DNA of 64,000 nt from a virus, in UHGV virus genome UHGV-0134778, one strand, 5' to 3'. Positions 13,692-14,599 of this stretch are shown piece after piece. The position numbers were made by a program, and so were the translations under genes. Position 1 is the first letter of the stretch, and the number at the start of each line of letters is the position of its first letter. Below the pieces are notes generated by a model. The model did no database searches and had not been told where the DNA came from. It was given only the letters and a program-made list of their open reading frames with translations.

Positions 13692-13768
13692 TGGTCTCCA
13701 CGGAGTGATTCGAACACTCGACCTCCTGATCCCAAATCAGGCGCTCTACCAAGCTGAGCTACGCGGAG
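13692..13768 (-). tRNA. tRNA-Pro (anticodon TGG)
   Basis: Hand-folded cloverleaf: 7-bp acceptor stem, D arm GCTC/GAGC, anticodon loop TTTGGGA, T loop TTCGAAT, encoded CCA. Confidence 0.85.
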
Positions 13769-13779
13769 TATTTATTATT

Positions 13780-13854
13780 TGGTGGCCCTGGGTGGAATTG
13801 AACCACCGTCTGGCGATTATGAGTCGCTTGCTTGAACCTTCCAGCTACAGGGCC
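13780..13854 (-). tRNA. tRNA-Met (anticodon CAT; elongator type, could be lysidine-modified Ile2)
   Basis: Acceptor GGCCCTG/CAGGGCC, anticodon loop CTCATAA, T loop TTCAATT, encoded CCA; G1-C72 pair argues against initiator. Confidence 0.8.
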
Positions 13855-13855
13855 A

Positions 13856-13931
13856 TGGTGCTGATGGCAGGACTTGAACCTGCAACCTATTGATTACAAA
13901 TCAATTGCACTGCCAATTGTGCTACATCAGC
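13856..13931 (-). tRNA. tRNA-Thr (anticodon TGT)
   Basis: Perfect 7-bp acceptor stem GCTGATG/CATCAGC, anticodon stem-loop ATTGA-TTTGTAA-TCAAT, T loop TTCAAGT, encoded CCA. Confidence 0.85.
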
Positions 13932-13935
13932 AAAA

Positions 13936-14034
13936 GGTGCTAGGTGATGGAATCGAACCACCTATGTATTCAACGACTACCTCGTCTATTTTCAGGATTA
14001 AAAATCCTCGCCCTTGCCAAAGGGCTTACCTAGC
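13936..14034 (-). tRNA. atypical tRNA-like element (99 nt): possible non-canonical tRNA or tRNA pseudogene
   Basis: Perfect 7-bp acceptor stem (GCTAGGT/ACCTAGC), canonical D arm and T arm (GGTGG-TTCGATT-CCATC), but A8-A9 instead of U8, an AGGATT-TTT-AATCCT hairpin in place of a standard anticodon arm, and a ~31-nt insert containing a second hairpin; no CCA encoded. Confidence 0.35.
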
Positions 14035-14132
14035 GCAATATGTTGACCATGTGGCTAGTCGGCGATGACGACTGTAACATTTGATAATCCGGTTCTGCTT
14101 CCGGCTTTCGCTTAATTACAAGGTCAACAATG

Positions 14133-14223
14133 TGGCGGAGAGTAATGGAATCGAACCATCATCGAGTCATCCTCAACGGGACGGTTTTCAAGACCGCTTG
14201 AGCACCATTGCTCCCTACCCTCC
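14133..14223 (-). tRNA. tRNA-Ser (anticodon TGA), class II with long variable arm
   Basis: Acceptor GGAGGGT/ACTCTCC with one G-U pair, anticodon stem-loop GCGGT-CTTGAAA-ACCGT, ~20-nt variable arm, T loop TTCGATT, encoded CCA. Confidence 0.8.
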
Positions 14224-14337
14224 TTTATAAATTACACTGATAATGACACTGATTTTCGAGCAGTTAGTGACTAGTATAAACGACGATAAATATCAATGTC
14301 ATTATCTGTATGATTTATGCATTTAAAAATATAAATT

Positions 14338-14424
14338 TGGTGGGGAGTGGTGGAGTCGAACCACCCGAGTCGCAATGACAATAGATTTACAGTCTACACC
14401 GCTACCTCTACGGGATAACTCCCC
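14338..14424 (-). tRNA. tRNA-Tyr (anticodon GTA), class II
   Basis: Acceptor GGGGAGT/ACTCCCC, anticodon stem-loop GTAGA-CTGTAAA-TCTAT, variable arm, T arm GGTGG-TTCGACT-CCACC, encoded CCA. Confidence 0.8.
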
Positions 14425-14428
14425 AATT

Positions 14429-14503
14429 TGGCACCCCGTACTGGACTCGAACCAGTGTCAACGGCTTAGAAGGCCGCTGCTTTATCCACTAAGCTAACAG
14501 GGC
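14429..14503 (-). tRNA. tRNA-Arg (anticodon TCT)
   Basis: Acceptor GCCCTGT/ACGGGGT with two G-U pairs, D arm GCTT/AAGC, anticodon stem-loop GCGGC-CTTCTAA-GCCGT, T arm ACTGG-TTCGAGT-CCAGT, encoded CCA. Confidence 0.8.
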
Positions 14504-14599
14504 ACTGGGTGGCTTTCTTTTACACCTGAGCCGCCAGAAAAGGTGGGAGACCATGTTTATAATATTACACTGTTAGGCAAAGTTTGTCAAGAAAATATT

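Follow-up and report, generated by a model that had tools for sequence, protein, structure and literature searches.

What kind of gene is the 99-nucleotide (nt) element that lies among ordinary tRNA genes in the virus genome UHGV-0134778, on the minus strand at positions 13936-14034 of the 64,000-nt stretch analysed here (the window)? A preliminary description of this element, named X below, had offered three readings: a degenerate tRNA, a tRNA with a non-standard anticodon arm, or a tRNA-like regulatory or priming RNA. We find X to be a non-canonical tRNA-like RNA of phage tRNA clusters that is in no curated family: it is real, ordinary in its location, unusual in its design, widely conserved and inconsistently annotated. 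By comparative criteria, X is shown to be a conserved, phage-restricted gene in which the cloverleaf, an extra arm and the elbow are under purifying selection, and the same comparisons suggest, with a confidence that we put at about even, that it acts as a tRNA mimic and not primarily as a decoder.

X has a cloverleaf fold with an additional arm

Escherichia phages vB_EcoM-ECP32 and EduardKellenberger match the region with 100% identity and rV5 with about 98%, and on this identity the window belongs to an rV5-like Vequintavirus. The X RNA extends from its 5′ end at 14034 to its 3′ end at 13936 and reads, 5′ to 3′, GCUAGGU AA GCCCUUUGGCAAGGGC G AGGAUUUUUAAUCCU GAAAAUA GACGAGGUAGUCGUU GAAUACAUA GGUGGUUCGAUUCCAUC ACCUAGC A CC. 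It is made up of the following parts.

13936-14034, minus strand: whole tRNA-like RNA gene X, with G1 at 14034, the discriminator A73 at 13938 and an encoded CC at 13937-13936
14028-14034, minus strand: 5′ strand of the acceptor stem, GCUAGGU, forming a perfect stem of 7 base pairs (bp); five of the seven acceptor pairs change on both sides in the family
13939-13945, minus strand: 3′ strand of the acceptor stem, ACCUAGC, pairing with GCUAGGU
14026-14027, minus strand: A8 and A9; A8 is found in 32 of 32 family sequences, U8 in canonical tRNAs
14010-14025, minus strand: D arm, GCCCUU-UGGC-AAGGGC, in which a 4-bp stem covaries, two U-A pairs are invariant and the loop holds G18 and G19
13994-14008, minus strand: 'anticodon' arm, AGGAUUUUUAAUCCU, with 6 bp and a UUU triloop, or 4 bp and a UUUUUAA loop
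13987-13993, minus strand: 5′ linker GAAAAUA, in which G and then AAAA are nearly invariant across the family
13972-13986, minus strand: extra (variable-region) hairpin GACGA-GGUAG-UCGUU, within a 31-nt stretch at RNA positions 42-72
13963-13971, minus strand: 3′ linker GAAUACAUA, in which AUAC..AUA is invariant or near-invariant across the family
13946-13962, minus strand: T arm, GGUGG-UUCGAUU-CCAUC, whose C56 pairs with G19 of the D loop

Folding with RNAfold gives a minimum free energy (MFE) of -34.2 kcal/mol, with z = -3.66 and none of 200 shuffled sequences as stable. The fold contains the features that the preliminary description had listed, namely the perfect 7-bp acceptor stem, the canonical D and T arms and A8, the perfect 6-bp hairpin with a 3-nt loop in the place of the anticodon arm (AGGAUU-UUU-AAUCCU), and an insert of about 31 nt containing another hairpin. 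The alternative fold with a TTT anticodon, also foreseen there, is obtained by opening two U-A pairs, which yields the 7-nt loop UUUUUAA with a UUU anticodon at a cost of +2.0 kcal/mol (isolated arm); this UUU reading is the one adopted in the records of the BASEL collection. The RNA has five arms: acceptor, D, 'anticodon', the extra hairpin set between two conserved single-stranded linkers, and T.

The D arm, GCCC-UUUGGCAA-GGGC, is drawn by RNAfold with a 6-bp stem and a 4-nt loop. Three of the four outer pairs covary in the family; the two inner pairs, 14:21 and 15:20, are U-A in 32 of 32 sequences, with pair probabilities of 0.97 and 0.70 in the window copy. The 6-bp stem is favoured by the folding and by a U.U mismatch at 12:23 in the Justusliebigvirus copies, and the two modelled inner pairs are unproven because they never vary.

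Homologues of X occur in several groups of enterobacterial phages

Homologues, traced by BLAST and pattern scans, are present in five genera of the Vequintavirinae (Vequintavirus, Avunavirus, Seunavirus, Mydovirus and Henunavirus), in other phage groups, and on IMG/VR and metagenome contigs. The copies outside Vequintavirus include those listed here.

Avunavirus: Av-05 and TH18 (the TH18 record gives no genus)
Seunavirus: KE22, PVP-SE1 type, EspYZU14 and EC152
Mydovirus: KB57, Ro1, AV124 and VIK251
Henunavirus: Erwinia phages Hena1 and SNUABM_55
Justusliebigvirus (Stephanstirmvirinae): EmilieFrey and about 30 others
Schitoviridae: Salmonella phage UTK0002 (Ithacavirus)

A covariance model, R1, built from 18 of the sequences, gives family members 75-121 bits, and no ordinary tRNA exceeds 29 bits with it; the window copy reaches 103.3 bits (E 6e-25). 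When one genome from each of 185,579 bacterial and archaeal species was scanned for exact patterns, three matches came up, none of them a family member, on which ground a bacterial origin was rejected. Within the searches made, the matching sequences restrict X to enterobacterial phages. All copies with enough flanking sequence to judge lie within a tRNA cluster, usually 2 nt past the CCA of another tRNA, and the neighbours vary by lineage: X stands before tRNA-Thr in the window, and after tRNA-Thr, -Ile, -Ser or -Leu elsewhere. In most other lineages it is followed by a non-coding spacer of about 200 nt (about 190-215 nt; genomes L004, L013, L015, L017, L089 and L090), conserved within lineages and giving no alignment between them.

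EmilieFrey (L089) carries a second unannotated and odd tRNA-like gene at 2685-2763, which follows the X homologue on its downstream side after about 70 nt. An acceptor stem, an extra hairpin and a T arm are present, as is an anticodon arm whose loop is CUUCUAA (UCU, Arg), but the D arm is missing; the gene scores 38.6 bits with the Rfam tRNA model, and ARAGORN misses it.

Public annotation of the family is uneven. The rV5 reference record and genome paper (PMC3606486) list six tRNAs, with X left out and no Lys among them; the GenBank records of the BASEL collection give X as tRNA-Lys (AAA) of 97 nt; and other records label family members as tRNA-OTHER, tRNA-???(atcc), tRNA-TERM or, in Hena1, tRNA-sup(tca), or leave them unannotated. 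In some records, small 'hypothetical protein' open reading frames (ORFs) are annotated across X or its downstream spacer. Rfam 15 holds no dedicated family for X, offering weak tRNA and tRNA-Sec (selenocysteine tRNA) matches, and our literature search found no paper describing the element. As a separate matter of labelling, 18 'Campylobacter phage' records MG0656xx (C2, C15, A12a and others) are about 98% identical to E. coli rV5-like phages in this region, and their host label looks doubtful.

Compensatory changes maintain the tRNA shape

In a MAFFT alignment of 18 distinct sequences, standard pairs form in 98.9% of cells, against 32-46% in controls with slid partners, and 10 of the 21 pairs change on both sides. 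With 32 distinct sequences, in an alignment that is model-fitted and so biased toward the structure, pairing holds at 98.7% of pair positions (sequence × pair), and compensatory changes are seen in 14 of 24 pairs; the acceptor and T helices are paired in 100% of cells. The T loop of X fits the canonical UUCRAnY. All four cloverleaf helices are supported by the alignments. The tertiary pair of the elbow, 19:56, is G:C in 23 of these 32 sequences and U:A in nine, with no mixed case. Because G19:C56 and U19:A56 replace each other without a mixed case, this covariation shows that the predicted RNA maintains a tRNA L shape with a D-loop/T-loop elbow.

Invariant or close to it in the same set are C2:G71, U7, A8, G10, the UUUG..AA of the D arm, C25, G26 and the T loop, as well as G28 and G29 with their partners, the GAAAA that follows the 'anticodon' arm and the AUAC..AUA that precedes the T stem; G1:C72 is kept in 30 sequences. 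A8 and U14 are invariant throughout, in place of the canonical U8 with its U8:A14 tertiary pair. As far as the alignments tell, A8 and the two linkers are non-tRNA features under constraint. The extra hairpin is folded in nearly all members at the same location, with a sequence and length unrelated between lineages; within the Vequintavirus and Avunavirus group one of its A-U pairs becomes G-C in Av-05 and TH18, and the apical motif GAACUAACAGUA is common to a subset of members.

Further roles for the loops and linkers were considered and rejected. For an antisense role of the 3′ linker, its complement CCUAUGUAUU, which has an AUG, gives six window matches with at most one mismatch where 4.3 are expected, and the sole exact match is X itself. 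The 'anticodon' and extra-hairpin loops are complementary in Seunavirus (UCCA:UGGA), with a change to GCCA:UGGC in one IMG/VR copy; loop-loop kissing was not adopted, there being no UGGA or UGGC partner outside the extra-arm stem in Mydovirus, Henunavirus and Vequintavirus. Pairing between the linkers (AUGU/ACAU in Henunavirus, used by the tRNA-Sec model) is not conserved in Vequintavirus, Seunavirus or Justusliebigvirus.

The 'anticodon' loop differs between lineages

The 'anticodon' arm is 14-16 nt long, against 17 in canonical tRNAs, with a G on either side. Its stem covaries; its loop, of 3-8 nt, is not conserved and takes the following forms.

Vequintavirus: UUUUUAA
Avunavirus: UUUAUAA (would-be anticodon UAU)
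Henunavirus, Justusliebigvirus, the Schitoviridae phage and some metagenome copies: C/U/A-AUCAA-A/G (reading UCA, with A33)
Seunavirus and Mydovirus: 6-nt loops closed by C-G, namely CAUCCA, CUUCCA, CCUCCA and CAGCCA
One metagenome copy: GUGAUA

A canonical arm, with a 5-bp stem and a 7-nt loop carrying U33 and a purine at 37, was not found; the window copy presents 4 bp, a G.G mismatch and the loop UUUUUAA, in its alternative fold only. Across the family the loops would read UUU, UAU, UCA (with A33), UCC, GCC or none. Judged on these variants, a decoding function shared across the family is excluded, because the loop varies in size and sequence while the rest is constrained; within single lineages the loop may still have a function of its own.

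In the window the arm resembles that of the host lysine tRNA. When X (GAGGAUUUUUAAUCCUG) is set against E. coli tRNA-Lys (GUUGACUUUUAAUCAAU), the inner 11 nt match at 10 positions; this E. coli tRNA-Lys sequence is present in 5426 of 5426 complete E. coli genomes, in a median of six copies. By this likeness, the window copy appears as an imitation of the anticodon stem-loop of host tRNA-Lys. The Vequintavirus arm is invariant in six distinct variants while other sites vary, and two phages with other loop types (L089 and L050) carry a separate canonical tRNA-Lys.

tRNA search models accommodate X in part

The Rfam tRNA model (RF00005) scores the window copy at 35.5 bits, against a gathering score of 29, and the TH18 copy at 33.1 bits; generic tRNA is the only match of its clan reported for the window copy. 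The alignment takes UUUUUAA as the anticodon loop and needs a 26-nt insertion, one deleted base (26 or 27) and a mismatched 27:43 pair. The same model reports nothing for the Seunavirus, Mydovirus, Henunavirus, Justusliebigvirus and Schitoviridae copies. A canonical tRNA call on a different fold, which the preliminary description had named as grounds for giving up its proposal, is therefore half present: the generic model passes on the window copy and fails on other lineages.

ARAGORN calls X tRNA-???(atcc) with a 4-base anticodon AUCC; we rejected this fold, as its AUUUU/AAAAU helix is unstable (+2.0 kcal/mol) and is not found in the homologues. Its relaxed mode, suggested as a check in the preliminary description, and its intron mode invented introns and made 12 different amino-acid calls on the 32 members, so that no one solution is consistent across them. 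Neither a transfer-messenger RNA call from ARAGORN nor an Rfam match to that RNA was obtained for X, which is only 99 nt long. Of the readings first offered, that of a non-standard anticodon arm or tRNA-like RNA has held up, with the UUU reading specific to one lineage and the family as a whole better described as a tRNA-like RNA.

Relation to known tRNA-like RNAs

In behaviour, the RNAs closest to X may be the species 1 and 2 RNAs of phage T4 (rnaC and rnaD), by functional analogy only. As with X, a phage tRNA cluster encodes these small non-decoding RNAs, in the order tRNA-Arg, rnaD, rnaC, and rnaC ends in a tRNA-type T arm, CCGGGUUCGAAUCCCGG, and is closed by pairing of its 5′ and 3′ ends. 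Unlike X, which has a full cloverleaf and one further arm, rnaC is 139 nt long and carries long hairpins instead of D and anticodon-like arms. Homology was rejected: rnaC scores 7.2 bits with R1 (E about 1), and rnaD has no match. To our knowledge, the species 1 and 2 RNAs have had no function assigned to them for about fifty years. The tRNA-Other of Bacillus cereus is likewise a tRNA-like small RNA with an atypical anticodon arm, which is charged but is not an ordinary elongator; it differs from X in being chromosomal and in having no extra arm.

In architecture, tRNA-Sec and the allo-tRNAs are closest. In allo-tRNAs (Mukai et al. 2017, PMC5389517) the D stem is long and capped by a tetraloop, the extra arm is long too, the junctions join five stems and the anticodons are highly diverse; many are translation-inactive and have been proposed to be regulatory, and some occur in phages (PMC5389517). 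They are defined by an 8/4 or 9/3 acceptor/T branch (PMC5389517), whereas the branch of X is 7/5 with full covariation support. In addition, the extra arm of X is set off, in the window by 7-nt and 9-nt linkers, an arrangement undescribed for allo-tRNAs, and its loops are often not of 7 nt. With tRNA-Sec (RF01852) X shares the long extra arm and may share the 6-bp D stem with a 4-nt loop, and some X loops, NAUCAAA, approach CUUCAAA. It lacks the 13-bp (8/5) branch, since A8 cannot pair with C65 and the tRNA-Sec model forces mismatches; nor does it show UCA within CUUCAAA, the window loop being UUUUUAA and the UCA-type lineages having A33.

A further comparison is offered by the tRNA-Lys of phage T5 in its encounter with the AriB nuclease of PARIS (PMC11464382, PMC12409363, PMC10264068), which, like X, places a copy of the tRNA-Lys(UUU) anticodon loop on a diverged stem and body. 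The main targets of AriB are tRNA-Lys(UUU) and tRNA-Thr(UGU), and the viral tRNA variants of T5 rescue infection and may also act as competitors (PMC12409363). X adjoins a tRNA-Thr(UGU), of the second target type. The T5-type nuclease-evading tRNAs are canonical, 76 nt long, with few escape mutations and demonstrated decoding; X has an altered core and a 31-nt variable region.

Possible function of X

The activity shared by the family would be independent of codon reading, because the loop differs between lineages and the body is strongly constrained. As a tRNA mimic, X would be transcribed within the tRNA operon from the promoter upstream of tRNA-Arg; as in general tRNA biology, RNase P would cleave its 5′ end, and 3′ trimming and CCA enzymes would finish it. 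The processed RNA would then be bound as a tRNA look-alike by a tRNA-binding factor of the host or the phage. Its body and acceptor end would do the work, whether the RNA is a competitor or decoy or a substrate for which the anticodon does not matter. The common scaffold would display a lineage-specific stem-loop, Lys-like in the window, where X could serve as a decoy for tRNA-Lys-directed nucleases or, by escaping their recognition, as a surrogate Lys tRNA that can be charged. The case for a Lys-directed surrogate or decoy in the window lineage is circumstantial.

Several observations weigh against a mimic that is not primarily a decoder. The UCA-type lineages keep A33-U34-C35-A36-A37 and vary at positions 32 and 38, which looks like selection on the loop sequence itself. 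The conformer with a 7-nt loop, only +2.0 kcal/mol above the triloop form, is accessible, and because of this conformer and the Rfam pass, decoding of AAA and AAG is still possible in the Vequintavirus lineage. The discriminator varies: it is mostly U, with A in Vequintavirus and a few instances of C. Most lineages encode CCA, the exceptions being Vequintavirus (ACC|U), Avunavirus (UACA) and some Justusliebigvirus copies (UUCA). A decoy role leaves the strict conservation of the linkers and of A8 unexplained. In Escherichia phage V18 (L006:923-1054), finally, a natural deletion runs from within tRNA-Tyr, whose 5′ part is kept, through the whole of tRNA-Ser and into X, of which the 5′ two-thirds are lost and the 3′ third is left fused to tRNA-Tyr; the genes affected, X included, are not essential for this phage.

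A bolder proposal, which we regard as rather doubtful, makes X a new class of phage RNA, an L-shaped scaffold with a rebuilt core that displays an interchangeable mimic of an anticodon stem-loop as an RNA-based anti-defence element. The core would consist of A8, the extended D stem, the conserved linkers and the extra arm, and the mimic would be Lys-like here and Sec-like or Gly-like elsewhere. Such an RNA could bind or absorb PARIS AriB, PrrC/RloC or toxins that modify the acceptor end, or could be a nuclease-proof surrogate tRNA.

Alternative explanations

The alternative that survives best, possible though not probable in our estimate, is that X in Vequintavirus works, however odd its structure, as an elongator tRNA-Lys(UUU) of a class-II-like kind, the variable region being long. 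It would decode lysine codons for codon supply or in replacement of host tRNA-Lys destroyed by defence nucleases, and the other lineages would read UAU, UCA and UCC/GCC. The window copy passes the Rfam tRNA model with the loop UUUUUAA, U33 and A37, the BASEL-collection annotation agrees, and rV5 is without another Lys tRNA. A73 is the discriminator of tRNA-Lys and, together with UUU, makes up the identity set of lysyl-tRNA synthetase, which X would fit; the likeness to host tRNA-Lys at 10 of 11 inner positions and the constancy of the arm among the six Vequintavirus variants point the same way. Against this, the stem has only 4 bp with a G.G mismatch, nucleotide 26 or 27 is missing, A8 replaces U8 and the MFE fold narrows the loop to 3 nt. 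Elsewhere in the family the 6-nt C-G-closed loops of Seunavirus and Mydovirus, the GUGAUA of the metagenome copy and the A33 of the UCA types in place of U33 are at odds with decoding, and the Avunavirus copies combine UAU with a discriminator U or C, not the A73 used by isoleucyl-tRNA synthetase. Moreover, the body, acceptor pairs included, stays constant while the putative identity changes.

That X is a cis-acting module for processing or stability of the tRNA transcript, providing RNase P or RNase E entry or spacing and having no function as a free RNA, seems to us very unlikely. Its constant place inside a tRNA operon, usually 2 nt after a tRNA CCA or a few nt before a tRNA, the long structured spacers that adjoin it and its dispensability in V18 would suit such a module, which would have no need for a covarying 'anticodon' stem, an extra hairpin, an elbow pair or an encoded CCA end; the position of X relative to the neighbouring tRNAs also differs by lineage.

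Highly doubtful, too, is a descent of the family from an opal suppressor of the tRNA-Sec or allo-tRNA type (UCA anticodon, 6-bp D stem and long extra arm), still at work in some lineages, with the window copy as a derived remnant. The Henunavirus copy has its best score with the Rfam tRNA-Sec model (39.0 bits, E 6e-07), which accommodates the D stem of 6 bp and its 4-nt loop and places CAUCAAA on the consensus CUUCAAA; this score lies below the gathering score of 47, and the acceptor/T branch is 7/5, not 8/5, 8/4 or 9/3. A UCA loop occurs in three unrelated phage groups and the Hena1 record annotates tRNA-sup(tca), yet A33 replaces U33 in all UCA-type copies and the window copy carries UUU instead of UCA. 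The Sec-like D arm, long variable arm and diverse anticodons are found in allo-tRNAs as well, many of which are translation-inactive (PMC5389517); stop-codon recoding is not known in these phages, no search for it having been made.

The degenerate tRNA of the preliminary description, a decaying pseudogene without function, could be invoked for the missing standard anticodon arm, the frequent omission by annotators and the loss in V18, and is effectively refuted by covariation, its stems being kept by compensatory changes across distant lineages (98.7% paired and 14 compensatory pairs, the covarying tertiary pair of the elbow included, in 32 distinct sequences) and X being conserved across at least three phage subfamilies or families.

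Operon context of X

The tRNA-like mimic that we favour would be expressed with its neighbours, which are arranged as follows.

13692-14503, minus strand: tRNA operon Arg(UCU)-Tyr-Ser-X-Thr(UGU)-Met/Ile2(CAU)-Pro, comprising six ordinary tRNAs and X
14562-14590, minus strand: sigma-70-like promoter TTGACA-17-TAATAT, upstream of tRNA-Arg and annotated as P(tRNA) in the rV5 record

Co-transcription of X with the cluster is likely because of this promoter upstream of tRNA-Arg. X lies upstream of tRNA-Thr at a distance of 4 nt (UUUU), or 6 nt from its discriminator, which is followed by CCUUUU and then by tRNA-Thr in the window.

Two spacers of the operon are themselves structured. The 98-nt spacer between tRNA-Ser and X (14035-14132, minus strand) is closed by a helix of 8 bp, UGUUGACC/GGUCAACA, with hairpins inside it (z = -2.2). 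Unannotated DNA with 85-89% identity to the core of this spacer (nt 15-83) occurs in three other phages, lambda imm21 (interval between the Q and holin genes), P7 (interval between tRNA-Thr and terB) and Salmonella phage ST1UNAM, and the spacer may be another mobile or structured phage element. The AT-rich spacer between tRNA-Tyr and tRNA-Ser (14224-14337, minus strand, 114 nt) forms a 15-bp hairpin, GAUAAUGACAUUGAU/AUCAGUGUCAUUAUC, with one G-U pair (MFE -26.7 kcal/mol, z = -4.6) and includes a sigma-70-like promoter match at 14302-14273. The tRNA with a CAU anticodon (13780-13854, minus strand) is tRNA-Met according to ARAGORN and the rV5 record, and tRNA-Ile (ATA), that is, a lysidine-type Ile2 tRNA, in the BASEL-collection record. 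The flanking ORFs of 112 and 89 amino acids match only PHROG families of unknown function and have no Pfam match.

Implications for phage tRNA clusters

Hundreds of sequenced phages carry X, members of the BASEL collection and therapeutic candidates among them; their hosts are E. coli, Salmonella, Klebsiella, Cronobacter and Erwinia. Its inconsistent labels distort tRNA counts and imply stop-codon suppression where there is perhaps none, and a dedicated covariance model, in the form of an Rfam family, would mend the annotation. With a structure supported by covariation, a natural deletion mutant in V18 and lineage-specific loop variants that can be swapped, the element is tractable. Phage tRNA clusters are usually explained by codon supply or, lately, by escape from host tRNA nucleases; X would be a second example of a non-decoding tRNA-like RNA in such clusters after the T4 species 1 and 2 RNAs, and a much more widespread one.

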